A stretch of 64,000 bases of DNA from positions 1 to 64,000 of IMG/VR virus record IMGVR_UViG_3300005573_000054; one strand, given 5' to 3'. The stretch comes from a virus. Shown one piece after another: positions 13,542-54,199 of this stretch (the stretch's first letter is position 1; every line of letters starts with the position of its first letter). The position numbers were made by a program, and so were the translations under genes. A model generated the notes under the pieces. It saw only the letters and a list, made by a program, of their open reading frames with translations. It was not told the DNA's origin and did no database searches.

Positions 13542-14282
13542 ATGAAAAGAGTAATCGTCACTAGGTCACAGAGACCTAATTGGGAAACTTTCTGGAATAA
13601 TCTTCCGGAAACCACAAAGGATTTGGTAAAAACAACTTTTAACAAAACGGTTTTTCTCCATACTCCTGTGGAGGATATCTATGACCTTATGACAAAGTGT
13701 CCTGCTCCATCCTTGTTTATCCATACGGGAAAGGGAGTGTTTAGACATGTTAAAGACCTGAAAACAAAGCAGCTTGAGGTAGATCTAGACGGTCTTAACT
13801 CTCTGAGATTACTCTCAGGAGTAATGTCACGATATGTGTGGAAAGTTCAAGAGATGAAAGTAGCAGCTATAGACGTGTTTGACAATCTCTATATATGCGA
13901 TCTACCTCACTTCGTATCTAACCAAGAACTCTTCGAAAAGTCTCTCCAACTCTTTTCAATAATCATTGAGGATTACAAGAAGCTCGTAGAAGAAGAACCC
14001 TCAATATACTCACAGATAATCAATGAAATCTTAACAATGCCTAACAAGTTATATAAGCTTTCTCCACTAGCAATCAAGCAAGGCTCAGAAGGAGAAAACA
14101 AGATGAAAGGTAGATCCTATTGCTTAATAGAAGTTCCTTATCAACGCTGGATGAAAAGCGTTTTTTCCAAGAATGTCCTTAGATGTATAAAAGAACTTCA
14201 AGATGGATATGAGTATGGAATAAGCCAATATAAACAAAAGTCTCAGAATTCCACTCAGACAACAGAAGGAGAACAGCAATGA
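13542..14282 (+). CDS. Hypothetical protein coupled to MoxR ATPase 1
   Basis: SD present. ATGA overlap with 14279. Confidence 0.8.
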   Translation: MKRVIVTRSQRPNWETFWNNLPETTKDLVKTTFNKTVFLHTPVEDIYDLMTKCPAPSLFIHTGKGVFRHVKDLKTKQLEVDLDGLNSLRLLSGVMSRYVWKVQEMKVAAIDVFDNLYICDLPHFVSNQELFEKSLQLFSIIIEDYKKLVEEEPSIYSQIINEILTMPNKLYKLSPLAIKQGSEGENKMKGRSYCLIEVPYQRWMKSVFSKNVLRCIKELQDGYEYGISQYKQKSQNSTQTTEGEQQ

Positions 14283-37659: not shown

Positions 37660-37695
37660 GTGAGAAGTGACGTCTGGATATATATAATGATAGAA
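37660..37695 (+). promoter_or_regulatory. Putative sigma70-type/early promoter
   Basis: GTGAGA-17 nt-TATAAT, embedded in GATATATATAATGATAGAA, which is shared with 9226. Confidence 0.5.
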
Positions 37696-38127: not shown

Positions 38128-38131
38128 AAAA

Positions 38132-38166: not shown

Positions 38167-38200
38167 AATGATAAACCCCTTAAACCAAAAGGAGGTTGTC

Positions 38201-39202
38201 ATGCTTATAGTAAAAGACTTGTTTCAAGTCCTCCAAGAAGTTCTCCAAGATGTAGACAAGCTTCTCATAAGTGGATCTCCAGGAATCGGCAAGTCAGAAA
38301 TTATCTATCAAGTGTGTAACAAGTTGAATCTCAAGGTATACGAAACAAGACTATATGAACAAGGGGAGTCGGCAGCAGGGCTCCCGAGAAGTCAAGACGG
38401 TATAACAAGATTTGACAAGCCATTCTGGCTAGATGAGCTGATCAAGGGTGGATATCAAGTTCTGTTTCTAGATGACTTCCATCTAGTCCCATCACAAGTA
38501 CAGCGTTTTCTTTACAAGCTCCTCACACACAAGGAACTTCACGATTACAAGGTACCCCAAGATCTCAAAGTGATTCTAGCAGGAAACTTCAAGATTGATT
38601 CTGCAGACTCAAGTGAAGTCCAGTCACCGATTATGTCAAGACTCCATCTAGCTATCGAATACGAGCCCGATCCAGAGGTATTCCTCAAGTTTGCAAGATC
38701 TCAACAAGACAGATTTGATTCAAGAGTCATTGCGTTTATTCAAGCAAATCCAGATTTGCTTTATACCAAGGAGCCTCCAACAAGTGAAATGTTCCCGTGT
38801 CCGAGGACATGGGAATACGCTTCAAGACTGCTGTCCAAGACTAATGATCCAAGGTTCCTTCTAGGTGTTGTAGGCACAAGAGCAGGATCAATCTTTCAAG
38901 AATTCTGGAATTTACTGAATCAAGATTTTAACACGATAGTCAAGACAGTGTCATATAAGTCAAGTATTAAAGATCAAGTTATAGCAAGCTTAATTTCTGC
39001 TCAAGAGTATTGTAAAGAACAAGATGTGTCAAGAAAGTCCAACATCTTCAAGTACGTTGAACAGTTCAAGGACGAGATCAAGTTCTTATTCGCAAGAAGG
39101 TGTTTTGAGGTCAAGGAGATGGAGTTCATACAAGAACTTAAAGTCAAGAGTCCAGATATATACAAGACTATCATAGAACTAGGTAAGGAGCTTACAAGAT
39201 GA
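38201..39202 (+). CDS. MoxR/dynein-related AAA+ ATPase (copy 2)
   Basis: SGSPGIGKS, LFLDDF, AGN, PIMSRL and FPCPRTWE. AAGGAGG precedes the ATG at 38201. Confidence 0.85.
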   Translation: MLIVKDLFQVLQEVLQDVDKLLISGSPGIGKSEIIYQVCNKLNLKVYETRLYEQGESAAGLPRSQDGITRFDKPFWLDELIKGGYQVLFLDDFHLVPSQVQRFLYKLLTHKELHDYKVPQDLKVILAGNFKIDSADSSEVQSPIMSRLHLAIEYEPDPEVFLKFARSQQDRFDSRVIAFIQANPDLLYTKEPPTSEMFPCPRTWEYASRLLSKTNDPRFLLGVVGTRAGSIFQEFWNLLNQDFNTIVKTVSYKSSIKDQVIASLISAQEYCKEQDVSRKSNIFKYVEQFKDEIKFLFARRCFEVKEMEFIQELKVKSPDIYKTIIELGKELTR

Positions 39203-40479
39203 ATACAAGTACGCTTAGTGAAGACAAGTTGATAAGTGTACTCAAGGTACAGGCATTCAAGTACACTTCAATGAATAGAATTCTAGAATATGAAATCAAG
39301 TTGGAAGATCTGAAACAAGTGGCCCCGCAAATTGCGGGGTATATTGACGACAAGCACAAGATTGTTATTGACAAGAGTTTAACAAGGGATGAACAAGTAG
39401 CAGTATTAATACACGAGGCATTACACGATGTTCTAGATCACATCAAGAGAGGTATGCGTCTAGAAGTATTCAACCAGCAACGAGATCAAGCTTTATGGAA
39501 TCTAGCGACAGACTACGTGATTAACAAGATAATATTAAGTTTAAACCTCAAGAAACATCCAGAAATACTTAAGAATGTGATACAAGTAGTTGACAAGTTT
39601 AGACCTGATCCAGAAAGCGATACAAGCGCAGAAGCCTTGTATAGGCTTCTCAAGAACAAGACCGAAGTCCAAGTGGAGAAACTAGAAGTTCAAATTCCAG
39701 GACAGAATCAAGGTCAAGGAGAACCAGATTCAATCGAGATTGTCAAGACAAGCGTAATTAACAAGGAAACAGGAGAAGTATTACAAGAGTCAGTACAAGT
39801 CCTCATCAGCAAGGAAGAAGCACAAGAGAGAAGCGAAAATCAACAAGAGGGAAAACAAGTGGATATCTTCAAGCTTCAAGAAAGTTTGAAACAAGCGGGG
39901 AACTCGTCTTCCCAGATGCTTCAAGAAATCACAGCAGCAAAATCAAGACTTAGTCTCAAGAATGAGTTGTCAAGTTATTTCGACAACCTCAAAACTCAAG
40001 GTCTTGATATAAGTTTCTTCGCAAGATCACCAAGAAGTACCGTTATCTCCTCAAGTTGTGGGTATAATGTTCCAGCATACGTCAATCCAAGGACGAAGAT
40101 TCTAGTTGCAATTGATTCAAGTGGATCAATAAGCAACAAGGAGTACTCGGAGTTTCTAGGGGTTTTAAGGAGAAACCTCAAGTACATTTATGGAAAACTA
40201 GTGTTATTCGACACAGAAGCTCAAGTTTATGATTTAGATTCAAGAGCAGTAGAAACACTAGAAAGAAAAGGGACTTTCAAGAGGGTTTTCTGTGGAGGCA
40301 CAAGTTTACGAGAGACCTTTAAGATTATTGAACAAGAGAAATTCAAACTAGCAATTATCATGACGGATCTAGAAGTTACTATTCCAGAGAAACCTAAGAA
40401 GCTTTCCAAGGTGTTGTGGATCGTCCCGTCGATTGACGGGACAAAGTTGCCAAGTTATGGAAAGGTTATTCAAGTGTAA
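39199..40479 (+). CDS. Zincin-like metallopeptidase + vWA protein (DUF2201-like), copy 2
   Basis: HEALH, WNLATDYVIN, SAEALY, DSSGSI, GGTSL, IMTDL and VLWIV..PSYGKV. Confidence 0.85.
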   Translation: MNTSTLSEDKLISVLKVQAFKYTSMNRILEYEIKLEDLKQVAPQIAGYIDDKHKIVIDKSLTRDEQVAVLIHEALHDVLDHIKRGMRLEVFNQQRDQALWNLATDYVINKIILSLNLKKHPEILKNVIQVVDKFRPDPESDTSAEALYRLLKNKTEVQVEKLEVQIPGQNQGQGEPDSIEIVKTSVINKETGEVLQESVQVLISKEEAQERSENQQEGKQVDIFKLQESLKQAGNSSSQMLQEITAAKSRLSLKNELSSYFDNLKTQGLDISFFARSPRSTVISSSCGYNVPAYVNPRTKILVAIDSSGSISNKEYSEFLGVLRRNLKYIYGKLVLFDTEAQVYDLDSRAVETLERKGTFKRVFCGGTSLRETFKIIEQEKFKLAIIMTDLEVTIPEKPKKLSKVLWIVPSIDGTKLPSYGKVIQV

Positions 40480-40506
40480 TAAGAAAATAAAGAAAGGAGG
40501 TAGGAA

Positions 40507-41748
40507 ATGAAAACGCCTACCTTCGAACAAGTAGTTGCTCAAGTACATGAAGGCAAGTTCTTTGAAGACAAGGAAATTCTTATGTTGAGAGACCAGTATG
40601 AAACAAGTATAGCTCACGAACAAGCTAGACAAGGTTGGACAACGAACGACAAGGAAATTCTCATGTTACAAGACAGAGTGGGGCGATCAGTCGCCCATAT
40701 TCAAGCAGAACGAGGTTGGACAACTGAAGACAAGGAAATTCTCGCGTTACAAGATGTAACAGGGCGAACAGTCGCCCACGAACAAGCTAGACAAGGTTGG
40801 ACAACCGAAGACAAGGAAATACTCGAGTTTGAAGATAATGGGAGACGAACAGTCGCCCATACTCAAGCAGAACGAGGTTGGATCACAGAAGACAAGAAGA
40901 TTCTCAAGCTTTACGACAGAAGTGGTACAAGTGTGGCTCACACTCAAGCTAGACAAGGATGGATTACTGAAGACAAGGAGATACTCGAGTTGAAAAACAC
41001 AAGCGGGTGGACAGTTGTCCACGAACAAGCAGAACAAGGGTGGACAACGGAAGACAAGGAGATGCTCAAGCTGAAGGATTACTATGGGCGATCAGTCGCC
41101 CATATTCAAGCTAAACGAGGGTGGACAACCGAAGACAAGGAAATACTCAAGTTGAAAGATAAGTATGGTACAAGTGTGGCTCATATTCAAGCAGAACGAG
41201 GCTGGATTATAGAAGACAAGGAAATACTCAAGTTAGAGAACAATCATGGTACAAGTGTGGCTCATATTCAAGCAGAACGAGGTTGGATAACAGAAGATCC
41301 AGAAATTCTCAAGCTTCACGATAAGAGTGGTACAAGTGTAGCTCATATTCAAGCAAAACAAGGATGGACTACTGAAGACAAGGAAATACTCAAGTTGAAA
41401 GATACAAGTGGGTGGAGTGTTGCCCACCAACAAGCAGATCAAGGATGGTCAACAGAAGACAAGGAAATCCTCAAGTTGGACAACGACCATGGTACAAGTG
41501 TAGCTCATATTCAAGCAGAACGAGGTTGGGTGTTTGAAGATCCAGAGATTCTAGTTTTGATCATTCGAGGCGGCTTGACGGTCGCCGAAGTTCAAGCACG
41601 TTATTCAGGTTGGACTCCAGGGGAAGAAGTCAAGGAAAAGTTCATACAAGAACTTCGGAAAAACTTTCCAGAAGAGAGAGTACAAGAAATACTTTACAAT
41701 GTTGATAATCTAGCGAAAGAATACTTCAAGAAAATCCTATCGAAATAG
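40507..41748 (+). CDS. Ankyrin-like repeat protein 1 (12 repeats + terminal repeat, type I C-cap)
   Basis: N-cap TFEQVVAQVxEGKFF, 27-aa repeats and a C-cap. Confidence 0.9.
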   Translation: MKTPTFEQVVAQVHEGKFFEDKEILMLRDQYETSIAHEQARQGWTTNDKEILMLQDRVGRSVAHIQAERGWTTEDKEILALQDVTGRTVAHEQARQGWTTEDKEILEFEDNGRRTVAHTQAERGWITEDKKILKLYDRSGTSVAHTQARQGWITEDKEILELKNTSGWTVVHEQAEQGWTTEDKEMLKLKDYYGRSVAHIQAKRGWTTEDKEILKLKDKYGTSVAHIQAERGWIIEDKEILKLENNHGTSVAHIQAERGWITEDPEILKLHDKSGTSVAHIQAKQGWTTEDKEILKLKDTSGWSVAHQQADQGWSTEDKEILKLDNDHGTSVAHIQAERGWVFEDPEILVLIIRGGLTVAEVQARYSGWTPGEEVKEKFIQELRKNFPEERVQEILYNVDNLAKEYFKKILSK

Positions 41749-41757
41749 GAGGTGAGA

Positions 41758-42273
41758 ATGAAAGTGTATACTTTCGAACAAGTAGTCGCTCAAGTGAATG
41801 AAGGCAAGTTCTTTGAAGATAAGGAAATCCTCAAGCTTTGCGACAAGAACGGGTGGACAGTCGCCCATGAACAAGCTTCTCAAGGCTGGACAACGGAAGA
41901 CAAGGAGATACTCAAGCTTTGTGATAAGAATGGTACAAGTGTGGCACATTTACAAGCGCTTCACAAGTGGACAACGAACGACAAGGAAATACTCAAGCTT
42001 TGTGACGAGTTCAAGGTGAGTGTTGCTCACGAACAAGCGTTTCGAGGATGGGTAACAGAAGATCCAGAAATTCTAGCTTTAGCTACCACAAGTAACTTCC
42101 TAGTAGCGAAAATTCAAGCATACTATTCGGGTTGGACTCCAGAAGGAGAAACTAGAGAAAAGTTTGTACAAGAACTTCAAAAGAATTTCCCAGTGGAGAA
42201 AGTACAAGAAATACTTTACGATATTGATGGTCTAGCAAAAGAGTATTTCAAGAAAATCTTATTCGGGAGGTAG
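41758..42273 (+). CDS. Ankyrin-like repeat protein 2 (3 repeats, type I C-cap)
   Basis: Same architecture. AGGAGGTG precedes the ATG at 41758. Confidence 0.9.
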   Translation: MKVYTFEQVVAQVNEGKFFEDKEILKLCDKNGWTVAHEQASQGWTTEDKEILKLCDKNGTSVAHLQALHKWTTNDKEILKLCDEFKVSVAHEQAFRGWVTEDPEILALATTSNFLVAKIQAYYSGWTPEGETREKFVQELQKNFPVEKVQEILYDIDGLAKEYFKKILFGR

Positions 42274-42276
42274 GAG

Positions 42277-43593
42277 ATGGAGATGTGTACTTTTAAGCAA
42301 GCAATTACTCAAGTAAATGAGGGTAAGTTCTTTGAAGACCCAGAAATCCTCAAGTTATATAATGTCTTCGGGCGGACAATCGCCCATGAACAAGCTTCTC
42401 AAGGCTGGATAACGGAAGACAAGGAGATACTCAAGTTAAAGGATGATCATGGTACAAGTGTAGCTCACGTTCAAGCAGAACATGGATGGACAACGGAAGA
42501 CAAGGAGATACTCAAGCTTCAAAATAACAGTGGGCTGACTGTTGCCCACAAACAAGCAGAACAAGGATGGACAACTGAAGATCCAGAGATTCTTAAGTTG
42601 TCCGACTGGTCAAGCTGGAGTGTTGCTCACACTCAAGCTAGACAAGGATGGACCACTGAAGACAAGGAGATACTCAAGTTACATAATATGTATGGGTGGG
42701 CGGTTGCCCACGAACAAGCTAAACAAGGTTGGATAACAGAAGACAAGGAAATTCTCAAGCTTCGCGACAAGAGTGGCACAAGCGTAGCTCATACACAAGC
42801 ATCTCGAGGATGGACTACAGAAGACAAGGAAATACTCATGTTACAAGACAGAATGGGGCGAACAGTCGCCCACGTTCAAGCAGATCAAGGTTGGACTACG
42901 GAAGACAAGGAAATTCTCAAGCTTCGCGACAAGAGTGGCACAAGCGTAGCTCATGTACAAGCATCTCGAGGATGGACAACGGAAGACAAGGAAATTCTCA
43001 TGTTGAAAGATAAGCATAATACAAGTGTAGCACATCTACAAGCAGAACGAGGATGGTCAACTGAAGACAAGGAGATACTCAAGTTAGAAGACGATCATGG
43101 TACAAGTGTTGCGTATAAACAAGCTAGACAAGGATGGATCACGAATGACGAGGAAATTCTCAAGCTTTGCGATGGGGGTGGCTGGTCCATCGCCCATAGA
43201 CAAGCTTCTCAAGGCTGGATAACTAATAACAAGGAGATACTCAAGTTGAAAGATAGATATGGTACAAGTGTAGCGCATTTACAAGCAGAACGAGGTTGGA
43301 CAACAGATGACAAGGAAATACTCAAGCTTCAAAATAACAGTGGGCTGACTGTTGCCCACAAACAAGCAGAACAAGGATGGACAACTGAAGATCCAGAGAT
43401 TCTTCTCCTCACGGAAAAACTAGGAGTCACTGTAGCCGAAGTTCAAGCAAGCTATTCAGGTTGGATATTAAGCGAAGACATTCAAGAAAAACTACGCCAA
43501 GAACCTTATAAGCTTAGTAAAGAGAAGCTTAACAAGTTAATATCATCAGTTAACGAAGCTTCAAGGCGATTCTTCAAGAATGCTCTAAAATAA
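42277..43593 (+). CDS. Ankyrin-like repeat protein 3 (13 repeats, type II C-cap)
   Basis: Same architecture as the rest of the array. Confidence 0.9.
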   Translation: MEMCTFKQAITQVNEGKFFEDPEILKLYNVFGRTIAHEQASQGWITEDKEILKLKDDHGTSVAHVQAEHGWTTEDKEILKLQNNSGLTVAHKQAEQGWTTEDPEILKLSDWSSWSVAHTQARQGWTTEDKEILKLHNMYGWAVAHEQAKQGWITEDKEILKLRDKSGTSVAHTQASRGWTTEDKEILMLQDRMGRTVAHVQADQGWTTEDKEILKLRDKSGTSVAHVQASRGWTTEDKEILMLKDKHNTSVAHLQAERGWSTEDKEILKLEDDHGTSVAYKQARQGWITNDEEILKLCDGGGWSIAHRQASQGWITNNKEILKLKDRYGTSVAHLQAERGWTTDDKEILKLQNNSGLTVAHKQAEQGWTTEDPEILLLTEKLGVTVAEVQASYSGWILSEDIQEKLRQEPYKLSKEKLNKLISSVNEASRRFFKNALK

Positions 43594-43607
43594 AAGGAGG
43601 TGGGAAA

Positions 43608-44366
43608 ATGGGAGTATGTGTCACTTTCGAACAAGTAGTCGCTCAAGTGAATGAAGGCAAGTTCTTCGAAGACCCAGAAATCCTCAAGCTTTATAACGAG
43701 AACGGGTGGAGTGTTGCCCATGAACAAGCGGATCAAGGATGGATAACGGAAGACAAGGAAATACTCAAATTAAAAAACAAGTATAACATAAGTGTAGCTT
43801 ATGTTCAAGCGTTCCGAGGATGGACAACAGAGGATCCAGAAATACTCAAGATTCAGGACAAGAACGGGTGGACTATCGCCCACGAACAAGCGGTTCGAGG
43901 ATGGACAACTGAAGACAAGGAAATACTTATGTTAAAAGATAAGTTTGGAACAAGTGTTGCCCATGAACAAGCGAAACAAGATTGGGTAACTGAAGACAAG
44001 GAAATACTTATGTTAAAAGACCAACACGGAACAAGTGTTGCTTATATTCAAGCTAGACGAGGATGGACAACTGAAGACAAGGAAATACTTAAACTAGAAG
44101 ACGATCAAGGTGTAACTGTAGCTCATGTTCAAGCAGAGCAAGGTTGGACGACAGAAGATCCAGAGATTCTAGTCTTGGCCACTTATGATGGCGTAACAGT
44201 GGCCGAAGTTCAAGCAGAACATTCAGGATGGGAGCTAGAAGGAGAGACCAGGGAAAGGTTTATTCAAGAGCTTCAAAAGAACTTTTCAAAGAGAAAAGCG
44301 CAAGAAGTACTTCACAATGTTGACAAGATGAGGAAAAAGTACTTCAAGGAAGCTCTGTTGGAATAA
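43608..44366 (+). CDS. Ankyrin-like repeat protein 4 (6 repeats, type I C-cap)
   Basis: Same architecture as the rest of the array. Confidence 0.9.
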   Translation: MGVCVTFEQVVAQVNEGKFFEDPEILKLYNENGWSVAHEQADQGWITEDKEILKLKNKYNISVAYVQAFRGWTTEDPEILKIQDKNGWTIAHEQAVRGWTTEDKEILMLKDKFGTSVAHEQAKQDWVTEDKEILMLKDQHGTSVAYIQARRGWTTEDKEILKLEDDQGVTVAHVQAEQGWTTEDPEILVLATYDGVTVAEVQAEHSGWELEGETRERFIQELQKNFSKRKAQEVLHNVDKMRKKYFKEALLE

Positions 44367-44370
44367 TAAG

Positions 44371-44460
44371 ATGAGACGAGACAATGTTCCAATATACAAT
44401 CAAGTAGTCACTCAAGTAAACAAGAAACACACAAGAGAAGATTTAATCTCAAGCCCTTAA
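44371..44460 (+). pseudogene. N-cap-only remnant of an array gene
   Basis: MRRDNVPIYNQVVTQVNKKHTREDLISSP* resembles MNRNDTLMYKQVIAQVNKGK of 48674. Confidence 0.6.
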
Positions 44461-44484
44461 TTTTTCTGTTAAGAGGTAGAGAAC

Positions 44485-44919
44485 ATGAAAGCGTGTCTTT
44501 TTGAACAAGTAGTTGCTCAAGTAAATGAAGGTAAGTTTTTTGAAGACAAAGAGATACTCAAGCTTCACGACGAGGACGGACGAACAGTTGCCCACGTTCA
44601 AGCAGAACAAGGTTGGATTACAGAAGACAAGGAAATACTCAAGTTGAAAGATATAAGCGGGTGGACAGTTGCCCACCAACAAGTGGTTCGAAGATGGATA
44701 ACAGAAGACCCAGAGATTCTAGTTTTGGCTACCATAAGAAACATCCTAGTGGCAGAAGTTCAAGCATGTTATTCAGGTTGGACCCCAGAAGAGGAAACCA
44801 GGGAAAAGTTCGTGCAAGAACTTCGGAAGAATTTTCCAGAGGAGAAAGCACAAGAGATACTTCACAATGTTGATAGTCTAGCAAAAGAGTATTTCAAGAA
44901 AATCTTATTCGGGAGGTAG
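44485..44919 (+). CDS. Ankyrin-like repeat protein 5 (2 repeats, type I C-cap)
   Basis: Same architecture as the rest of the array. Confidence 0.9.
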   Translation: MKACLFEQVVAQVNEGKFFEDKEILKLHDEDGRTVAHVQAEQGWITEDKEILKLKDISGWTVAHQQVVRRWITEDPEILVLATIRNILVAEVQACYSGWTPEEETREKFVQELRKNFPEEKAQEILHNVDSLAKEYFKKILFGR

Positions 44920-44922
44920 GAG

Positions 44923-45678
44923 ATGGAGATGTGTACTTTTAAGCAAGCAATTACTCAAGTAAATGAGGGTAAGTTCTTTGAAGATAAAGAGATACTCAAG
45001 CTTTGCAACGGGAACGGGTGGAGTGTTGCCCATGAACAAGCATTTCGAGGATGGACAACAGAAGACAAGGAAATCCTCATGTTGTATGATGATACTGGGT
45101 GGACTGTCGCCCATGAACAAGCTTCTCAAGGTTGGACAACAGAGGATCCAGAAATTCTCAAGTTTTGCGATGATGTTGGACAGACTGTCGCCCACGTTCA
45201 AGCATCTCGAGGATGGACAACCGAAGACAAGGAAATACTCAAGCTTCAAAATGACAGTGGGTGGACAGTCGCCCATGAACAAGCAAGCAGAAGATGGACA
45301 ACGAACGACGAGGAAATCCTCAAGTTAAAAGACAACCACGAGTGGACTGTTGCCCATATTCAAGCTAGACGAGGATGGATAACTGAAAACAAGGAAATAC
45401 TCAAGTTGAAAGACGATCGTGGTACAAGTGTAGCTTATGTTCAAGCATCTCAAGGATGGATAACAGAAGATCCAGAAATTCTAGTCTTGGCCACTCACGA
45501 TGACATAACAGTAGCCGAGGTTCAAGCTAAATACTCAGGATGGGAACCAGAAGGGGAAGTCAAGGAAAAGTTTGTGCAAGAACTCCAGAAAAACTTTTCA
45601 AAGAAGAAGATACAAGAAATACTTCAGGATATCAACGAGTTGAGGAAAAAGTATTTCGAGAGAATCTTATTAGTGTAA
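44923..45678 (+). CDS. Ankyrin-like repeat protein 6 (6 repeats, type I C-cap)
   Basis: Same architecture. N-cap identical to that of 42277. Confidence 0.9.
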   Translation: MEMCTFKQAITQVNEGKFFEDKEILKLCNGNGWSVAHEQAFRGWTTEDKEILMLYDDTGWTVAHEQASQGWTTEDPEILKFCDDVGQTVAHVQASRGWTTEDKEILKLQNDSGWTVAHEQASRRWTTNDEEILKLKDNHEWTVAHIQARRGWITENKEILKLKDDRGTSVAYVQASQGWITEDPEILVLATHDDITVAEVQAKYSGWEPEGEVKEKFVQELQKNFSKKKIQEILQDINELRKKYFERILLV

Positions 45679-45817
45679 CGAGATAAATCAAGATAAACAA
45701 ACAAGAAATATCAAAGAAAGAACCATTATAATTGTTTAATAAGTTTTTTCGTGTTGAAGTTACAAGAAAATTTTTCCAAAAATATCTCAAAAAATCTTAT
45801 AGACGGGAGGTGAGGAA

Positions 45818-46810
45818 ATGGAAGCGTATACTTTTGAACAAGCAATCACTCAAGTGAATGAAGGTAAGTTTTTCGAAGACAAGGAGATACTTAAACTTCA
45901 CGATGAGAATGGGTGGACTGTTGCCCATGAACAAGCTAAACGAGGGTGGACAACTGAAGATAAGGAGATCCTCAAGCTTCACGATAAATCATGGCGAAGT
46001 GTAGCCCATGAACAAGCGAAACGAGGATGGACAACAAATAACAAGGAGATACTCATGTTACGTGACACTTTCAGATGGTCTGTTGCTCATATTCAAGCAG
46101 AACATGGGTGGACAACTGAAAATAGAGAGATTCTCAAGTTGTTCGACTGGTCCAACTGGACTGTCGCCCATGAACAAGCAAGACGAGGGTGGACAACTGA
46201 AGACAAGGAAATTCTTAGACTTTATAGCGACTATGGATATACTGTAGCTTATATCCAAGCAAAACATGGATGGATAACAAATGACAAAGAAATACTCAAA
46301 TCGAAAGATAAGTATGATACAAGTGTAGCGCATCTACAAGCAAAACATGGCTGGACCACCGAAGATAAGGAGATACTCAAGCTTTATGATAAGAATAAGT
46401 GGTCTGTTGCTCATGAACAGGCAAGACAAGGATGGACTACTGAAGATAAGGAAATCCTCAAGTTAGAAGACAATTGTGGTACAAGTGTCGCTCATATTCA
46501 GGCAGAACAAGGATGGACAACTAAAGATAAGGAGATACTCAAGTTGCATGATGTCTGTGGGTGGACAGTCGCCCATGAACAAGCTAAACGTGGTTGGATA
46601 ACTGAAGATCCAGAGATTCTTCTTTTCGCAGAAAGACTGGGAGTCACTGTTGCAGAAATTCAGGTAGAATATTCAGGCTGGACACTAAGCGAAGACATCC
46701 AAGAAAAACTACGGCAAGAACCTTACAGACTCAGTGAAGAGGAGTTTAACAAGTTAATGTCGTCAATCAACGAAGCTTCAAGACGGTTCTTCAAGAATAC
46801 TCTAAGATAG
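45818..46810 (+). CDS. Ankyrin-like repeat protein 7 (9 repeats, type II C-cap)
   Basis: Same architecture as the rest of the array. Confidence 0.9.
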   Translation: MEAYTFEQAITQVNEGKFFEDKEILKLHDENGWTVAHEQAKRGWTTEDKEILKLHDKSWRSVAHEQAKRGWTTNNKEILMLRDTFRWSVAHIQAEHGWTTENREILKLFDWSNWTVAHEQARRGWTTEDKEILRLYSDYGYTVAYIQAKHGWITNDKEILKSKDKYDTSVAHLQAKHGWTTEDKEILKLYDKNKWSVAHEQARQGWTTEDKEILKLEDNCGTSVAHIQAEQGWTTKDKEILKLHDVCGWTVAHEQAKRGWITEDPEILLFAERLGVTVAEIQVEYSGWTLSEDIQEKLRQEPYRLSEEEFNKLMSSINEASRRFFKNTLR

Positions 46811-46824
46811 AAGGAGGCGGGAAA

Positions 46825-47817
46825 ATGGAAGCGTATACTTTCGAACAAGCAATCACTCAAGTGAATGAAGGCAAGTTCTTCGAAGATAAGGAGATACTCA
46901 AACTTCACAATAAGAATGGGTGGACTGTAGCCCATGAACAAGCGGAGCATGGTTGGACAACTGAAGACAAGGAGATACTTAGACTTTGCGACAAGAATGG
47001 GTGGACTGTGGCCCATGAGCAAGCTAGACGAGGGTGGACTACTGAAGACAAAGAGATACTCAAGTTGAGAGATCAGTACGGAGTAAGTGTCGCTCATATT
47101 CAAGCAGAACGAGGATGGACAACCGAAGACAAGGAGATACTCATGTTACGTAATATTTATGGGTGGACTGTTGCCCATGAGCAAGCTAGACAAGGGTGGA
47201 CAACTGAAGACCCAGAGATTCTTTTTCTCGTAGATAGACTAGAAATCACTGTAGCTGAAATACAAGCAAAACATGGATGGATGACAAATGATAAAGAAAT
47301 ACTCAAATTGAAAGATATGTACGGCACAAGTGTAGCACATTTTCAAGCAGAACATGGTTGGACTACAGAAGACAAGGAGATACTCAAGCTTTGTGATAAG
47401 AATAACTGGTTTGTTGCTCACGAACAAGCGAAACGAGGATGGACGACTGAAGACAAAGAGATACTCAAGTTAGATGACGATCAAGGTGTAAGTGTCGCTC
47501 ATATTCAAGCAGAACGAGGATGGACAACTGAAGACAAAGAGATACTCATGTTGCGTAATATCTATGGGTGGACTGTTGCCCATGAACAAGCTAGACAAGG
47601 GTGGACAACTGAAGATCCAGAGATTCTAGTCTTAGCCACTCGTGATAACTTAATGGTAGCCGAAGTTCAAGCAAGCTATTCAGGCTGGACACTAAGCGAA
47701 GACATTCAAGAAAAACTGCGACAAGAACCTTATAGACTTAGTGAAGAGGAGCTTAACAAGTTAATGTCGTCAATCAACGAAGCTTTAAGACGGTTCTTTA
47801 AGAATGTTCTAAGATAA
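46825..47817 (+). CDS. Ankyrin-like repeat protein 8 (9 repeats, type II C-cap)
   Basis: Same architecture, with an internal terminal-type repeat. Confidence 0.9.
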   Translation: MEAYTFEQAITQVNEGKFFEDKEILKLHNKNGWTVAHEQAEHGWTTEDKEILRLCDKNGWTVAHEQARRGWTTEDKEILKLRDQYGVSVAHIQAERGWTTEDKEILMLRNIYGWTVAHEQARQGWTTEDPEILFLVDRLEITVAEIQAKHGWMTNDKEILKLKDMYGTSVAHFQAEHGWTTEDKEILKLCDKNNWFVAHEQAKRGWTTEDKEILKLDDDQGVSVAHIQAERGWTTEDKEILMLRNIYGWTVAHEQARQGWTTEDPEILVLATRDNLMVAEVQASYSGWTLSEDIQEKLRQEPYRLSEEELNKLMSSINEALRRFFKNVLR

Positions 47818-47831
47818 AAGGAGGTGAGAAA

Positions 47832-48677
47832 ATGGAAACATATACTTTTGAACAAGCGATTGCCCAAGTGGATAAAGGTAAGTTTTTCGAAGACAAGGAG
47901 ATACTTAAACTTCACGACGAAAACGGGTGGACTGTTGCCCATAAACAAGCTAAGTATGGTTGGACAACTGAAAACAAGGAGATACTCAAGTTAAAGGATA
48001 ACCGTGGTATAAGTGTAGCCCATGAACAAGCTAAACGAGGGCGGACAACAGAAGACCCAGAGATTCTTAAGTTGTCCGACTGGTCCAGATGGACTGTTGC
48101 TCATATTCAAACAGAACATGGGTGGACAACTGAAGACAAGGAAATACTCAAGTTAAACGACAAATGGGAACGGGCTGTGGCCTACATTCAAGCTAGATAT
48201 GGATGGACTACAGAAGACAAGGAAATACTCAAGTTAAGAGACAACCATGGGCGGTCTGTTGCCCACGAACAAGCGGAGCTAGGATGGACAACGGAAGACA
48301 AGGAAATTCTCAAACTTTGTAACAAGAGCGGTACAAGCGTAGCACATTTACAAGCGGAACAAGGATGGACTACAGAAGACCCAGAAATCCTCAAGCTTTG
48401 CAATAAGTACGGTGTAAGTGTAGCTCATGAACAAGCTAAACGTGGTTGGATAACTGAAGATCCAGAGATCCTAGTTTTAGCCGCCACAGGAAACTTCCTA
48501 GTAGCAGAAGTTCAAGCAGAGTATTCAGGTTGGAAACCAGCGGAGGAAGTCGAGGAAAAGTTCGTGCGAGAACTTCAGAAGAATTTTCCAGAGGAGAAAG
48601 TACAAGAAATACTTCATAATATTGATGATCTAGCAAAAAATATTTCGAGAAAATCTTGTTTGGGAGGTAGGAGATGA
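47832..48677 (+). CDS. Ankyrin-like repeat protein 9 (7 repeats, type I C-cap with frameshifted tail)
   Basis: Same architecture. Ends LAKNISRKSCLGGRR instead of LAKxYFxKILFGR. Confidence 0.88.
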   Translation: METYTFEQAIAQVDKGKFFEDKEILKLHDENGWTVAHKQAKYGWTTENKEILKLKDNRGISVAHEQAKRGRTTEDPEILKLSDWSRWTVAHIQTEHGWTTEDKEILKLNDKWERAVAYIQARYGWTTEDKEILKLRDNHGRSVAHEQAELGWTTEDKEILKLCNKSGTSVAHLQAEQGWTTEDPEILKLCNKYGVSVAHEQAKRGWITEDPEILVLAATGNFLVAEVQAEYSGWKPAEEVEEKFVRELQKNFPEEKVQEILHNIDDLAKNISRKSCLGGRR

Positions 48678-49834
48678 ATCGAAACGACACTCTAATGTAT
48701 AAACAAGTAATTGCTCAAGTAAATAAGGGTAAGCTCTTCGAAGACAAGGAGATACTCAAGCTTTGTGATAAGTACGGTACAAGTGTAGCTCACGTTCAGA
48801 CAGAACGAGGGTGGACAACCGAAGATAAGGAAATTCTTACACTTCATAAAAAGTCTGGATGGACTGTTGCCCATCAACAGGCAGAACGTGGATGGACAAC
48901 AAATAACAAGGAGATACTCAAGCTTTGCAACAAAAGCGGTATAAGTGTAGCTCACGTTCAAGCTAAACATGGGTGGACAACTGAAGACAAGGAAATACTC
49001 AAGCTTCATGATGACTTTGGGCGGACTGTAGCTCATGAACAAGCTAAACAAGGATGGACCACTGAAGACAAAGAAATACTCGAACTTTGTGATGTCACTG
49101 GATGGACTGTAGCTCATGAACAAGCTAAACAAGGATGGACTACTGAAGACAAAGAAATACTCGAACTTTGTGATGATTCTGTATGGACTGTAGCTCATGA
49201 ACAAGCTAAACAAGGATGGACTACTGAAGACAAGGAAATACTCGAACTTTGTAATGACGATGGATGGTTTGTTGCCCATGAACAAGCTAAACATGGGTGG
49301 ACAACTGAAGACAAGGAAATACTCAAGCTTCATGATGACTCTGGATGGACTGTAGCTCATGAACAAGCTAAACAAGGATGGACTACTGAAGACAAGGAGA
49401 TACTTAAACTATGTAACAACCCTGGATGGACTGTAGCTCATGAACAAGCTAAACAAGGATGGACTACTGAAGACAAGGAGATACTCAAGTTAAGAAACCA
49501 GTATGATCGGACTGTTGCTCATGAACAAGCTTCTCACGGATGGACGATAGAAAACAAGAAAATACTTAAGTTGAAAGATAAACATGGTACAAGTGTAGCA
49601 CATTTACAGGCAGAGCAAGGATGGACAACAGAAGATCCAGAAATCCTTTTACTCACAGATAAATCAGGGACTACCGTCGCAGAAATTCAAGCAAGGCGTT
49701 CAGGTTGGTTACCAAGTGAAGACACTCAAGAAAAGATACGGCAAGAGCTCTGTAAATCTGCGGTAAGGAGGTTCAACAGTTTAATAACAGCTGCTTCGAA
49801 AAAGTTTTTCCAACAGACTCTGAAAGGAGAGTAA
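48674..49834 (+). CDS. Ankyrin-like repeat protein 10 (11 repeats, type II C-cap)
   Basis: Same architecture, with a run of near-identical recent repeats at ~49020-49480. Confidence 0.9.
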   Translation: MNRNDTLMYKQVIAQVNKGKLFEDKEILKLCDKYGTSVAHVQTERGWTTEDKEILTLHKKSGWTVAHQQAERGWTTNNKEILKLCNKSGISVAHVQAKHGWTTEDKEILKLHDDFGRTVAHEQAKQGWTTEDKEILELCDVTGWTVAHEQAKQGWTTEDKEILELCDDSVWTVAHEQAKQGWTTEDKEILELCNDDGWFVAHEQAKHGWTTEDKEILKLHDDSGWTVAHEQAKQGWTTEDKEILKLCNNPGWTVAHEQAKQGWTTEDKEILKLRNQYDRTVAHEQASHGWTIENKKILKLKDKHGTSVAHLQAEQGWTTEDPEILLLTDKSGTTVAEIQARRSGWLPSEDTQEKIRQELCKSAVRRFNSLITAASKKFFQQTLKGE

Positions 49835-49867
49835 TATAGAAACCACAACCTAAATGAGGTAAAGAAA

Positions 49868-50461
49868 ATGAAAGTATTTACTTTTAAGCAAGCGGTTGCC
49901 CAAGTAACTAAAGGTAAGTTCTTTGAAGATAAAAAAATCCTCAAGCTTCACGACAAGAACGGGTGGACTGTTGCCCATGAACAAGCGAAGCGAGGATGGA
50001 CCACCGAAGACAAGGAAATACTCAAGCTTTGTGATAAGTACGGAGTGAGTGTAGCCTATGAACAAGCGAGACATGGCTGGACCACTGAAGACAAGGAAAT
50101 TCTCAAGCTTTGCAACAAAAGCGGTACAAGTGTAGCTCATATACAAGCGAGATATGGCTGGACTACTGAAGATAAGGAGATACTCAAGCTTCGTAATAAG
50201 TACGGTACAAGTGTAGCACACGAACAAGCGTACCGAGGATGGGTAACAGAAGACCCTGAGATTCTAGTTTTAACTACCATAAGTAACTTCCTAGTAGCAA
50301 AAGTTCAAGCATGTTATTCAGGTTGGACTCCTGAAGGGGAAACCAGAGAAAAGTTCGTACAAGAACTCCAAAAGAATTTCCCAGTGGAGAAAGTACAAGA
50401 AATACTTTACGATATTGATGATCTAGCAAAAAAGTATTTCAAGAAAATTTTGTTAGAATAG
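49868..50461 (+). CDS. Ankyrin-like repeat protein 11 (4 repeats, type I C-cap)
   Basis: C-cap nearly identical to that of 41758. Confidence 0.9.
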   Translation: MKVFTFKQAVAQVTKGKFFEDKKILKLHDKNGWTVAHEQAKRGWTTEDKEILKLCDKYGVSVAYEQARHGWTTEDKEILKLCNKSGTSVAHIQARYGWTTEDKEILKLRNKYGTSVAHEQAYRGWVTEDPEILVLTTISNFLVAKVQACYSGWTPEGETREKFVQELQKNFPVEKVQEILYDIDDLAKKYFKKILLE

Positions 50462-50472
50462 GAGGTGAGAAA

Positions 50473-51384
50473 GTGGAGTCGTATACTTTTGAACAAGCGT
50501 TTATTCAAGTACTTAGTGGCAAATTTTTCCAGGACAAAGAAATACTTAAATTATATAACGAAGATGGACGGACTATTGCTCATGAACAAGTAAGACAAGG
50601 ATGGAGAACAGAAGATAAAGAGATACTCAATTTATATGACAAAGATAGATGGACTGTTGCCCATCAACAGGCAGAACGTGGATGGACAACAAATAACAAG
50701 GAGATACTCAAGCTTTGTGATAAGTACGGTACAAGTGTAGCTCACGTTCAAGCAGAACACAGATGGACTACTGAAGACAAGGAAATACTCAGGCTTTGCA
50801 ACGACTCTGGACGAACAGTCGCTCATATTCAAGCATCTCATGGATGGACTACAGAAGACCTAGAAATCCTCAAGCTTTGTGGTAATCTTGAATGGACTGT
50901 CGCTCATGAACAAGCAAAACAAGGATGGACAACAGAAGATCCAGAAATCCTCAAGCTTTGCGACAAGAACGGGTGGACTGTGGCTCATGAACAAGCACGC
51001 CAAGGATGGACTACTGAAGACAAGGAGATACTCAAACTTCGCGACAAGACCGGGTGGACTGTTGCTCACGAACAAGCAGATCGAGGTTGGACAACAGATG
51101 ACAAGGAGATACTCAAGTTATGTAATATCTTTGGTCGGTTTATCGCTCATGTACAAGCGCTTCGAGGATGGACCACAGAGGATCCAGAGATTCTAGTCTT
51201 GGCCGCTTTTAACAACTTAACAGTAGCAGAAGTTCAAGCAGAACATTCAGGATGGGAACCGGAAGGAGAAGTCAAGGAAAAGTTCGTACAAGAACTTCAG
51301 GAGAACTTTCCTAAGGAAATAGTACAAGAAATACTCTGTAACATTGATAAGTTGAGGAAAAAGTATTTCAAGAGAATCTTATAA
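50473..51384 (+). CDS. Ankyrin-like repeat protein 12 (8 repeats, type I C-cap)
   Basis: Same architecture. GTG start after AGGAGGTG. Confidence 0.9.
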   Translation: MESYTFEQAFIQVLSGKFFQDKEILKLYNEDGRTIAHEQVRQGWRTEDKEILNLYDKDRWTVAHQQAERGWTTNNKEILKLCDKYGTSVAHVQAEHRWTTEDKEILRLCNDSGRTVAHIQASHGWTTEDLEILKLCGNLEWTVAHEQAKQGWTTEDPEILKLCDKNGWTVAHEQARQGWTTEDKEILKLRDKTGWTVAHEQADRGWTTDDKEILKLCNIFGRFIAHVQALRGWTTEDPEILVLAAFNNLTVAEVQAEHSGWEPEGEVKEKFVQELQENFPKEIVQEILCNIDKLRKKYFKRIL

Positions 51385-51399
51385 ACGGGAGGTGAGAAA

Positions 51400-51588
51400 A
51401 TGGAAACATATATTTTTAAGGAAGTAATCATTCAGGCAAAACGCTCAGGATGGATGTTGAATGAAGATATTCAAGAAAAACTACAACAAGAACCTTGTAA
51501 ATTTAACGAAGAAAGATATAATAAATTAGTATTATCAACTAATAAAGCTTCAAGACAATTCTTCCAAAATATCCTAAAAAAAGAGTAA
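51400..51588 (+). CDS. Repeat-less array member (N-cap fused directly to type II C-cap)
   Basis: METYIFKEVIIQA|KRSGWMLNEDIQEKLQQEP..., with an intact SD. Confidence 0.7.
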   Translation: METYIFKEVIIQAKRSGWMLNEDIQEKLQQEPCKFNEERYNKLVLSTNKASRQFFQNILKKE

Positions 51589-51593
51589 CAAAA

Positions 51594-52472
51594 ATGAATA
51601 TAAGAAACTATAATCTAAGCGACGAAGAAATTCTAGAATTACCTATTGAGAAACAACGTCTAGTTGCGTATGCCCAAGTTCAACGTGGGTGGACCACAGA
51701 AAACAAAACAATCCTCCAACTCTCTTTATACTGGGGACGAACAATAGCTCATGAACAAGCCAGACAAGGATGGACAACAGAAGATAAAGAAATACTTACA
51801 ACAGTAGATATTTTTGGAGAATATGTAGCTCATATTCAAGCGCAGAATGGCTGGGTTACGGAAGATCCAGAGATTCTTAAACTTGCTAACAAAGAAAAAC
51901 AAACAGTTGCTCATATTCAAGCAGAACAAGGATGGACAACAAATAACAAGGAAATTCTCAAACTTTGTAACTCTAGAAAATGGACTGTTGCCCATATTCA
52001 AGCTAGACGAGGATGGACAACTGAAGACATAGAAATCCTCAAGTTAACTAACAAGCTTGGTCAGTCCGTCGCTTTTTTCCAGGCAATGAATGGATGGACT
52101 ACAGAGAATCTAGAAATACTCAAACTTCACGATAAAAATGGGTGGACTGTTGCCCATGAACAAGCTAGACGTGGATGGACTACAGAAAATTTCAAGATTC
52201 TTAAACTAGCTGACAAAAATGGATGGACTGTTGCTCATGAACAAGCTAAGCGTGGATGGATTACAAGAGATTTAAGAGTTCTTACTATCAAAGATATGAG
52301 AAACAATACAGTAGCTGAAATACAAGCAAAACACTCTGGATGGACTCCTGATGATGAACTCGAGAAGAAGTTACTTCAAAAGCTTCGAAAACGTTCTGTA
52401 GAAGAAGCATCAAGAGTGTTGAAATCAATAAACGATTTATCTCTAGAGTTTTTTAGAAACGCCTTTAGATAG
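51594..52472 (+). CDS. Ankyrin-like repeat protein 13 (divergent caps)
   Basis: About 8 repeats with the same consensus. Confidence 0.88.
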   Translation: MNIRNYNLSDEEILELPIEKQRLVAYAQVQRGWTTENKTILQLSLYWGRTIAHEQARQGWTTEDKEILTTVDIFGEYVAHIQAQNGWVTEDPEILKLANKEKQTVAHIQAEQGWTTNNKEILKLCNSRKWTVAHIQARRGWTTEDIEILKLTNKLGQSVAFFQAMNGWTTENLEILKLHDKNGWTVAHEQARRGWTTENFKILKLADKNGWTVAHEQAKRGWITRDLRVLTIKDMRNNTVAEIQAKHSGWTPDDELEKKLLQKLRKRSVEEASRVLKSINDLSLEFFRNAFR

Positions 52473-52486
52473 TAAGGAGGTATAAA

Positions 52487-53335
52487 ATGGATGAAGATCG
52501 GTCTCAAATTCAAATTATGGAAAAGAAGTATCCTAAAAAGAAACTTCTAGAAATTGTTGATGAGACTCTGAAGAAAACTCTTGCACATGAGTTAGCCATC
52601 CAAGGAATGATTACAACTTCAAGAAAGATTTTACTTACCGCTGATAGAAATGGGAGAACTGTTGCCCATTATCAAGCTCTCTCTGGATATGTAGTTACAG
52701 AATCAGATATTTTAAAACTTGCTGATCTATGTGGAACGACGGTTGCACATCTACAGGCAAGTAAGGGATGGACTACAAAATCAAAAAAGATCTTAAAACT
52801 AGCTGATATAGATGGATGGTCAGTAGCTCATGAAATAGCTAGCAAAGGACACTTTTTTCCAGAAACTCAAAAGGAAGTTTTAAAAATCAGCGATATAAGC
52901 GGGTGGACTGTTGCCCATGAACAGGCAAGTAGAGGATGGATAACAAACGACAAGGAAATCCTCAGTCTTTCTACTCTTAGGGGATGGACTGTTGCTCATG
53001 AACAAGCAAAACATAAATGGACCACAGAAGATCCAGAGATACTAATGTTGAGAGATAAAGAGAAGTGGTCTGTGGCACATGAGCAAGCGTATCAAGGATG
53101 GACTACAAATGATATTAATATCCTTAAAATACGTGATGCTCTTGGAGTGTGTGTGTCTATGGTTCAGATCGAAGTTTCTGGGTGGATTTATCCTTCCAGT
53201 TTGGAAGAAAAGTTTTCCCGAGATTGTTTGTCTCTTATGAAGAAGATTTACACCAAAAAGGGTATTAATATGTTCCCGGAGGAGGAAAAAGATGGAAAGG
53301 AAGTTAAAACCAAGACAAGTAGTTTGCTCTTGTAA
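52487..53335 (+). CDS. Ankyrin-like repeat protein 14 (most divergent)
   Basis: D..GWTVAHEQA..GW repeats, more degenerate than the others. Confidence 0.88.
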   Translation: MDEDRSQIQIMEKKYPKKKLLEIVDETLKKTLAHELAIQGMITTSRKILLTADRNGRTVAHYQALSGYVVTESDILKLADLCGTTVAHLQASKGWTTKSKKILKLADIDGWSVAHEIASKGHFFPETQKEVLKISDISGWTVAHEQASRGWITNDKEILSLSTLRGWTVAHEQAKHKWTTEDPEILMLRDKEKWSVAHEQAYQGWTTNDINILKIRDALGVCVSMVQIEVSGWIYPSSLEEKFSRDCLSLMKKIYTKKGINMFPEEEKDGKEVKTKTSSLLL

Positions 53336-54120: not shown

Positions 54121-54199
54121 CGTTGTACCTCCTTTGATGGTCTTAACGACTTCTCCAGAGTGGTGGATTGACCAAGATGTCACCACCACTCGTTTTTTT
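54121..54199 (+). ncRNA. Putative small RNA/regulatory unit, copy 2
   Basis: TACCTCCTTT followed by stem GAGTGGTGG/CCACCACTC (compensatory pair relative to copy 1) and T7. Confidence 0.45.

Follow-up and report, generated by a model that had tools for sequence, protein, structure and literature searches.

The window analysed here is the first 64 kb (64,000 nucleotides) of a 159,483-bp virus record of IMG/VR (IMGVR_UViG_3300005573_000054; completeness estimate ~50%), and 109 of the 110 open reading frames (ORFs) of at least 150 aa lie on its + strand. Our subject is the tetranucleotide CAAG, which is written densely and on one strand through protein-coding DNA of this virus, an uncultured giant phage (hereafter the CAAG code). 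Sliding-window counts show that the enrichment is not uniform along the genome: it is confined to two islands in the whole record, one at 38.2-52.5 kb (island 1) and another from 157,574 to the contig end (island 2), with ~540 CAAG sites in total, i.e. 1 per 21-30 bp. The genes of island 1 are as follows.

38201..39202, + strand: AAA+/MoxR-like ATPase (Pfam AAA/AAA_5, PHROG 1297; homologues of 333 aa)
39199..40479, + strand: vWA-like protein/putative metallopeptidase (Pfam DUF2201_N and DUF2201), with 55 CAAG
40507..51384, + strand: twelve tandem paralogues composed of 27-aa ankyrin-like repeats (81-bp units), recognised from ORFs, translations and tandem repeats
51594..53335, + strand: two further repeat genes, in which the code is near background (18 and 13 CAAG per kb)

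The AAA/MoxR gene, whose true start is the ATG at 38201 preceded by an AAGGAGG Shine-Dalgarno sequence, is the densest of all (52 CAAG, ~52 per kb), while the twelve repeat genes contain 26-46 CAAG per kb, with 4-5 CAAG in the 81-bp unit. Island 2 encodes, in this order, a SpoVK/Vps4-type AAA+ ATPase, a 122-aa MJ1673/CARF-like protein and the start of a third gene.

Between 38153 and 51384 the coding strand carries 475 CAAG versus 9 CTTG. In the rest of the record the baseline is ~6.0 CAAG and ~4.5 CTTG per kb, and a genome-wide polarity of CAAG is thus absent outside the islands. Expressed per kb, CAAG reaches 25-52 at 38-51 kb versus 0-18 (median ~7) elsewhere in the window, and CTTG falls to 0-3 within the block versus ~4.5 outside it. 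The block has a composition of its own (purines 61%, T depleted), and a second-order Markov model built on this composition expects 289 CAAG and 42 CTTG. Other 4-mers also peak strongly at places in the record, but in simple tandem or low-complexity repeats; CAAG alone forms such a peak in non-repetitive coding DNA. An earlier note, made from the letters of this DNA alone, had claimed that CAAG exceeds what composition predicts, that it occurs in all three codon phases of non-repetitive genes, and that it recurs in the 81-bp unit as gaCAAG, ctCAAG, aCAAGt and CAAGc. All of this held on recomputation: the CAAG/CTTG counts are 17/0 at 38221-38520, 5/1 at 14281-14580 and 2/0 at 5161-5460, the three phases of AAA/MoxR contain 17, 15 and 20 CAAG, and the positions in the repeat unit are correct. 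The statement that CTTG is common upstream is weak, since its frequency at 36-37 kb (11 per kb vs the 4.5 baseline) is non-significant after multiple testing.

Selection on the tetranucleotide was assessed by enumerating, per codon phase, every dipeptide able to encode CAAG and then determining the fraction that actually does so (realised/potential sites). These counts, together with codon-context tests and genome-wide codon resampling, replaced a within-gene synonymous shuffle, which is too weak as a control because the already biased codon pool of the gene is kept. The values obtained were:

AAA/MoxR, island 1: phase 0 17/17, phase 1 15/19, phase 2 20/28
vWA, island 1: phase 0 19/20, phase 1 14/19, phase 2 22/36
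AAA, island 2: phase 0 16/17, phase 1 14/18, phase 2 15/32
Rest of the genome (realised fraction): phase 0 0.72, phase 1 0.17, phase 2 0.08

Such an excess might be a by-product without any signal, generated by codon or codon-pair usage, by amplification of repeats, by acquisition of a foreign block or by context-dependent mutation bias. The peculiar composition of the block is in line with this explanation, as is the fact that 30 of the 52 MoxR sites survive within-gene synonymous shuffling. The context of individual codons argues otherwise. Codons ending in C are chosen in the islands in 82% of cases before AAG, versus 23% before AAA and 19% elsewhere (75% before AAG vs 25% before AAA in the repeat genes), whereas in the rest of the genome they make up 18% before AAG and 17% otherwise, hence without any coupling between adjacent codons. 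Likewise, NCA codons are used in 94% of cases before AGN vs 41% otherwise, and CAA is chosen 36 out of 37 times ahead of G. A bias of codons or codon pairs was rejected, because the three phases are used equally, the coupling of adjacent codons is found only in the islands, and amino acids are altered as well. A general avoidance of T|A codon junctions or of AAA was also rejected, as C-ending codons account for just 23-25% before AAA/AAN. The one-letter neighbours CAAA, CAAC, CAAT, TAAG, GAAG and AAAG are at or below baseline in the islands, and no single type of mutation yields CAAG from every neighbour.

The excess survives protein-fixed resampling. With amino acids held constant and codons drawn according to genome-wide usage, the four non-repeat island genes contain 165 CAAG vs 50.6 expected (z ~21); CAAG is the top 4-mer of this analysis, and TCAAG and ACAAG are the top 5-mers. 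The flanks favour A/T, with 79% at position -1 (p = 2.5e-9) and 74% at position +4 (p = 0.002), which extends the motif to WCAAGW; no information was found at positions beyond these flanks. In the non-repeat island genes, CTAG, chiefly as TCTAG, shows a 3-4-fold enrichment as well (7.9 per kb in window 38201-40479 and 6.3 per kb in record 157,574-159,483, vs 2.0), with 20 TCTAG observed vs 4.5 expected (z = 7.6), and it may represent a second, less strict version of the motif (CWAG).

The code reaches beyond synonymous choice. Dipeptides of the Gln-(G..) type occur at 0.045-0.051 per codon in the code-bearing lineage vs 0.002-0.014 in orthologues, and Gln content is ~1.5-4 times that of the orthologues; by these comparisons, the island proteins are bent to fit the motif. 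The claim of the earlier note that protein sequence alone does not explain CAAG is therefore borne out by the codon-context coupling, the saturated synonymous opportunities and the changed amino-acid composition. The reverse complement is treated in the opposite way. Leu is encoded by CTT before G in 4/39 and 3/53 cases vs 28/107 and 85/249 before other bases in the islands, while in the rest of the genome CTT makes up 36% whether or not G follows. CTTG is thus actively avoided in the islands.

Comparison with relatives places the origin of the code in the recent past. A protein search returned one near-identical copy, one 86% relative and otherwise nothing above 52%. This 86% relative is represented by two independent metagenomes of the Joint Genome Institute (L002, L003; ~85% nucleotide identity), in which CAAG density is equal and begins at the same start codon. 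The two lineages have 45 of the 52 MoxR sites in common, with 7 private on each side, and the repeat-gene contigs of the relative (L017, L018) carry 30-60 CAAG per kb throughout. Synonymous differences between them affect 27/170 motif-touching codons vs 103/325 others (Fisher p = 1.5e-4); this slower synonymous evolution within the motif is not what a by-product would show. The code is kept in this relative, but CAAG is not enriched in orthologues at 42-51% identity, which reside in syntenic phages (RNA polymerase beta and GTP cyclohydrolase upstream, vWA downstream). The MoxR-vWA genes are therefore vertically inherited and recently recoded, and a foreign origin of the block was rejected. In island 2, a 77% relative of the AAA gene (L014) shows a weak bias, and its neighbouring 122-aa gene realises 0/13 sites vs 13/16 here. 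Scans of phage GenBank (blastn) and IMG/VR gave no match for the MoxR protein or the repeat DNA word.

The repeats offer a further natural control. Although amplification multiplies the CAAG of each unit, the unique genes (MoxR, vWA, AAA and the 122-aa ORF) are the densest, and homologous repeats elsewhere are without the code. Clustered genes of the 27-aa family are also found on the megaplasmid of Deferribacter desulfuricans SSM1, and the family is represented in another phage (L019); in both, the EDKEILKL repeat motif is written GAT/GAC AAA GAA ATA TTA. The NNC-AAG combination is realised in 1/126 cases in four Deferribacter plasmid genes, and in 1/137 when the phage gene is added. Repeat inheritance was rejected on these grounds. 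Because both the syntenic orthologues and the homologous repeats lack the code, repeat inheritance, foreign origin and Deferribacter-like codon adaptation are all excluded. The explanation of the code as a by-product has thus already been largely refuted, and we regard it as scarcely credible.

Within island 1 the strength of the code changes with position. The realised fraction in phases 1+2 ranges from 0.38 to 0.67 among the twelve repeat genes; it drops at larger spacers, from ~0.6-0.7 up to 44.4 kb to ~0.4-0.5 up to 51.4 kb, and is near background thereafter. The fade toward 52-53 kb described in the earlier note is real, with phase-2 realisation declining from 12/23 to 4/19 and 2/19 in successive repeat genes at 51.4-53.3 kb. 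Two other genes of the window display a weak code:

58778..59665, + strand: orphan gene of the repeat family (19 CAAG per kb)
14279..15340, + strand: paralogous AAA/MoxR (BLASTP, 27% identity to the island copy), with 10/25 realised in phases 1+2 vs background 0.11

The latter is part of a second MoxR-vWA operon (13542-16588), whose code is weak as a whole (5/20, 10/25 and 10/43 in phases 1+2, against the same background) and whose proteins are just 27% identical to the island copies.

Given these results, we are highly confident that CAAG (WCAAGW) serves as a nucleic-acid signal that is specific to one strand and under positive selection, that it was introduced recently into two operons of accessory genes, and that CTTG is counter-selected in the same places.

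The arrangement of the sites provides clues as to how this signal is read. In the non-repeat genes, 14 pairs of neighbours are at most 10 nt apart, vs 29.9 +/- 3.3 when the same number of sites is drawn from the potential ones. A used neighbour is present within 10 nt of 56% of the unused potential sites, and of 17% of the used ones. The first peak of spacing is at 11-14 nt, with a minimum centre-to-centre distance of ~11 nt; Fourier analysis of the spacing revealed no convincing peak. In view of this short-range avoidance, essentially all non-redundant opportunities are filled. The code also respects the beginnings of genes. The zone from -20 to +19 around 16 island start codons contains 2 CAAG vs ~23 expected at island density, and the zone from +20 to +39 contains 28; the first CAAG stands at +26 in island 1 and at +21 in island 2. 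The first 20 nt of MoxR and of the 122-aa gene hold unused CAAG opportunities, and even CTTG.

One explanation that accommodates the spacing is a sequence-specific protein coating duplex DNA head-to-tail at CAAG and acting as an operon-wide silencer, a roadblock or a compaction factor, e.g. in early-gene shut-off. A minimum distance of about one helical turn, with a first peak at 11-14 bp, would suit such a protein, while uniform orientation together with avoidance of reversed sites would suit a cooperative head-to-tail filament, and the operon-limited boundaries are compatible with it. Ribbon-helix-helix proteins such as ParG and omega bind arrays of 4-bp boxes; to our knowledge, no 13-kb array located inside coding DNA has been described for binders of this type. 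A duplex coat gives no reason for sparing the first ~20 nt of coding sequence and the 5' untranslated regions (UTRs), and no candidate gene for the DNA-binding protein was identified. We therefore consider it decidedly unlikely.

The 5' boundary of island 1 coincides with a series of putative regulatory elements, and two related hairpins are situated beyond its 3' end.

37677..37688, + strand: promoter-like element GATATATATAAT, found in a whole-record pattern scan and conserved in relative L002
37771..38070, + strand: gene for a 99-aa basic protein, located between promoter and terminator and conserved as protein in L002
38092..38127, + strand: strong intrinsic terminator (hairpin and T-run) directly upstream of the island, conserved in L002
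38133-38166: 11-bp inverted repeat after the terminator, conserved in L002
54013..54046, + strand: CAAG-loop hairpin, copy 1, terminator-like with a U-tail; CAAG is displayed in the 6-nt loop and anti-Shine-Dalgarno ACCTCCTTT precedes it
54158..54191, + strand: CAAG-loop hairpin, copy 2, with compensatory stem changes relative to copy 1

The order upstream of island 1 is thus GATATATATAAT at 37677, a structured leader, the 99-aa gene, the terminator, the inverted repeat, the Shine-Dalgarno sequence with the ATG at 38201, and the first CAAG. The leader (37690-38200; folding z = -6.1) is conserved in the 85% relative. In the 99-aa gene, located 130 nt upstream of the island, the code is off (0/7 potential CAAG realised). 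The GATATATATAAT element occurs in 4 copies and 1 variant in 159 kb, all on the + strand, and two of the copies precede the two CAAG islands. A role of the 99-aa protein as a lambda-N-like regulator was considered and found to be unsupported: its sole distant homology is with a giant protein of 5692 aa, in which the matching domain recurs 16 times (16 matched stretches, 27% identity), and its Atlas model is of poor quality.

From the selection, polarity, spacing and boundaries of the sites we infer action on RNA rather than on DNA, a protein as reader, and the possible purposes given below. The reading that we favour, with a probability of roughly 0.4, is that the array consists of evenly spaced sense-strand sites for a single-strand-binding, probably RNA-binding, factor that coats or marks transcripts. 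The sites would act on the sense single strand, most probably mRNA, as a dense array with centre-to-centre distances of at least ~11 nt. Selection for the number of sites, their strandedness and their footprint-like spacing point to many copies of the factor placed side by side in one orientation, and island transcripts would be coated or marked by this sequence-specific factor, or would titrate it. The ribosome-binding region of every independently initiated gene would be left free of it. If every site added to the effect, e.g. by keeping RNases or RNA-targeting defence away, by obstructing Rho, by localising the transcript or by titrating a host factor, this would explain why usable opportunities are filled almost completely.

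The transcript is favoured over duplex DNA for three reasons. The code starts just outside the initiation footprint of the ribosome and leaves 5' UTRs as well as ribosome-binding regions free. On its 5' side it is bounded by a terminator, promoter or start codon and does not begin at an arbitrary point. Finally, CUUG, the sole word able to pair with the motif, has been removed, and CAAG is accordingly predicted to be mostly unpaired (unpaired probability 0.58-0.65 at CAAG vs 0.43-0.44 elsewhere). As in arrays of the Csr/TRAP type, a 3-4-nt motif is confined to the sense strand, with sites at distances of up to 10 nt depleted twofold relative to opportunities. The two CAAG-loop hairpins, which lie 0.6 kb downstream of island 1, might bind the same factor with high affinity or act as decoys for it, and they constitute a lead toward a reader at the RNA level.

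Several observations weigh against an RNA-level array. A head-to-tail coat on double-stranded DNA would predict the same spacing and the same avoidance of the reverse complement. The accessibility of CAAG is not significantly above that of codon controls in which the rest was shuffled (z = -0.4, 1.7, 1.6), and in the folding comparison the island RNA had no less structure than its shuffled counterparts. The sparing of ribosome-binding regions could reflect generic selection at the 5' ends of genes; it amounts to just 3-4 independent start-codon cases, because many island genes are paralogues, and the vWA gene has CAAG at -4 and +8, though it is translationally coupled to the gene upstream. A 9-nt spacing (Q-A-x-Q-G), frequent in the repeat genes, violates the 11-nt rule. 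Intergenic CAAGs were withdrawn as proof of independence from translation, because the spacers are decayed coding remnants. Two other copies of GATATATATAAT (92.6 and 98.5 kb) precede regions without the code. Pfam profiles of KH_1, CSD, S1 and CsrA match nothing in the ~50%-complete record, and the host may be what supplies the reader. A search of the record for a CTTG-rich antisense partner found none.

Around the downstream hairpins, the segment 53975-54200 (folding z = -4.2) contains two copies, 146 nt apart, of a unit in which anti-Shine-Dalgarno ACCTCCTTT is followed by a long hairpin, whose loop reads CAAGAU, and by a U-tail. It may represent a small RNA linked to the CAAG code. Some 2 kb downstream of the island, 2.8 kb (54600-57400) are devoid of ORFs of at least 100 aa and are occupied by tandem arrays with periods of 71, 48 and 23 bp and GCTGCTATATAAG-like units, including 11 copies of TATATAAT and three identical terminator-like hairpins on the minus strand. 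This segment may serve as an origin of replication or as an array of promoters or small RNAs. No tRNAs were detected in the window, and no Rfam families at 36-58 kb.

The earlier note had interpreted the pattern as closely packed sites of one orientation for a factor that binds DNA or RNA, and conservation, minimum spacing and avoidance of the reverse complement bear out this part of its proposal. Its list of possible functions stands only in part. A signal at the level of mRNA fits best, since the code begins ~20 nt past the start codons and ribosome-binding regions are spared. Recombination-stimulating sites for shuffling of the array are not supported, as the highest densities lie in the non-repeated ATPase and vWA genes and island 2 is devoid of repeats. 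For a guide of DNA ejection, or a mark of first-entering DNA, we found no evidence: the island is internal to the contig and lies between core genes.

The internal position also bears on the possibility that CAAG is a polar DNA signal for a translocating enzyme, i.e. a Chi-like attenuator of RecBCD/AddAB or a KOPS/SRS-like guide of a DNA pump, protecting or orienting DNA. A short word has a counterpart in the 5-mer Chi of Bacillus subtilis, and extreme polarity (475:9) combined with local clustering is what they would produce. A precedent exists in the Chi-saturated lambdoid phages LLS, MD8 and P1, in which Chi sites are terminally clustered and the phages lack recombination modules of their own (Zheng et al. 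2025, PMC12315714). In these phages, as here, a short, asymmetric and co-oriented word is locally clustered and written through genes under selection. The differences are considerable. Chi is a word of 5-8 nt present at tens of sites, whereas CAAG has a 4-nt core (6 nt with weak flanks); one site per 21-30 bp over 13 kb far exceeds any need, as the effect of Chi saturates after a few recognitions. Density peaks at the end of the island that is far from the entry of a matching enzyme. Unlike the Chi-rich phages, this one has a RecA-like gene of its own (L013; PF00154, RecA_N). Moreover, the logic of Chi predicts neither avoidance of the reverse word, nor 11-nt spacing, nor sparing of ribosome-binding regions, nor confinement to two operons with boundaries at start codons. 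KOPS, which orient FtsK, and the SRS of SpoIIIE are likewise strand-polarised words that serve a directional machine and are counter-selected in the reverse orientation; they are 8-mers distributed chromosome-wide and polarised toward dif, while CAAG is local, operon-limited and 100-1000 times denser. Here, two local islands in 159 kb take the place of a whole-replicon distribution with a switch of polarity at ori/dif. We consider a signal for a translocating enzyme unlikely, though with a real chance of being correct.

Another possibility is that DNA is modified at CAAG in a strand-specific way, e.g. by a phage DpdA that inserts 7-deazaguanine at G, or by another enzyme; the islands would then be places where one strand is modified at very high density. 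The record does encode genes of the preQ0 pathway, namely FolE (5e-36), a QueE-like radical-SAM protein and QueC with an N-terminal extension (6.5e-46). Phage DpdA enzymes are motif-specific (PMC10484667, PMC7544227), but their known motifs, GA and GGC, differ from CAAG. The candidate TGT/DpdA-like ORF (record 74,395-75,843; L021 396-1844) is without Pfam or PHROG match, PF01702 matches nothing in the record, and insertion of deazaguanine into the phage DNA is unconfirmed. Profile searches of the ~50%-complete record retrieved no DNA methyltransferase families. Modification would also leave unexplained the confinement to two operons, the sparing of ribosome-binding regions and the spacing of at least 11 nt, and we judge it improbable, with a small chance at best.

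Uniform orientation and avoidance of CTTG could also reflect evasion of host defence, if CAAG or AAG were the site or protospacer-adjacent motif of a system that needs inverted sites (Type III/Type ISP) or that fixes the orientation of spacers. Co-oriented EcoP15I sites are present in T7, and the MJ1673/CARF-like gene of island 2 suggests a conflict with CRISPR signalling by cyclic oligonucleotides. Evasion explains avoidance, but not the stronger positive selection (from 6 to 50 sites per kb, i.e. 8-fold, with proteins altered), and it also fails to account for the spacing and for the restriction to two operons; its chance of being correct appears slim.

The 122-aa protein of island 2 (record 158,992-159,360) belongs to the CARF-like MJ1673 family, with CRISPR-associated TIGR02221 relatives (Atlas feature score 0.91, structural TM 0.75), which suggests an anti-CRISPR or signal-sponge role. 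Past island 2 (L013, L014), three assemblies stop at the same base. They break there because ~130 nt are identical in a second phage of the same sample, whose AAA gene is just 77% identical; this sharing suggests that the ~130 nt are mobile or recombine, or that they are a repeat which interrupts assembly. At least 4 paralogous genes composed of the 27-aa ankyrin-like repeat (GWTVAHEQA..GWITEDKEILKL) are clustered on the megaplasmid of Deferribacter desulfuricans SSM1 (L016; AP011530, 124771-137520), and they are informative as to the lineage of the host and the source of the phage repeat repertoire. The homologous repeat genes, together with the hydrothermal or sediment origin of related matches, hint at a Deferribacter-like thermophile as host, which is only a lead. 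In phages with orthologous MoxR-vWA genes, the position of the repeat array is held by a reverse transcriptase gene (RVT_1) or a gene with an Mtd_N domain (L004 14999-15979; L009 5035-5640). These are probably parts of diversity-generating retroelements, and the locus may therefore be a hotspot for variable binders.

Among known systems, those that read RNA offer the closest parallels to the sense-strand array that we favour. In CsrB/CsrC, which present GGA in loops to CsrA, in the 11x(G/U)AG targets of TRAP, in the UAG triplets of HutP and in the YCAY clusters of NOVA, many 3-4-nt motifs with footprint-matched spacing occur in one RNA and act additively or cooperatively. The display of CAAG in two nearby hairpin loops adds to the likeness with CsrB. 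Such arrays comprise 3-22 sites in untranslated RNA, whereas hundreds of CAAG sites extend over 13 kb of coding DNA at a cost to the proteins, where action on RNA is what we propose. RegB of T4 is also a phage factor that reads a 4-nt word (GGAG) in early transcripts, but its sites are few, lie in Shine-Dalgarno regions and lead to destruction of the mRNA, while CAAG avoids such regions and its number is maximised. A literature search found no description of a tetranucleotide that saturates coding DNA in this manner. We rate the CAAG code as a new kind of feature, which resembles each of the closest systems in one respect and lacks the defining features of each.

Since most synonymous opportunities are filled, Gln-(G..) dipeptides are raised 4-8-fold and a single strand is used, selection acting on the nucleic acid prevails over that acting on the protein across 15 kb. 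The object is a sharp one, with a defined motif, a footprint of ~11 nt, exact boundaries, a code-bearing sister lineage, and code-free orthologues and repeat homologues that serve as natural controls. In a more specific and rather doubtful version of the favoured reading, a 'transcript coat code', a lineage-specific or virion-delivered protein would bind WCAAGW every ~11-30 nt and polymerise along early accessory and anti-defence mRNAs. The operons concerned would be those encoding AAA+/vWA proteins, the ankyrin-like binder repertoire and the CARF-like protein, and the coat would shield their mRNAs from RNA-targeting immunity or RNases, or steer them to a site of translation, while leaving ribosome-binding sites open. 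If true, this would be a prokaryotic-virus analogue of sequence-coded packaging of messenger ribonucleoprotein, written in coding DNA at the expense of protein sequence. The reader of the CAAG code, if found, would reveal either a new type of RNA or DNA binding, suited for use as an orthogonal tag, or a further level at which phage and host are in conflict, around early accessory genes.

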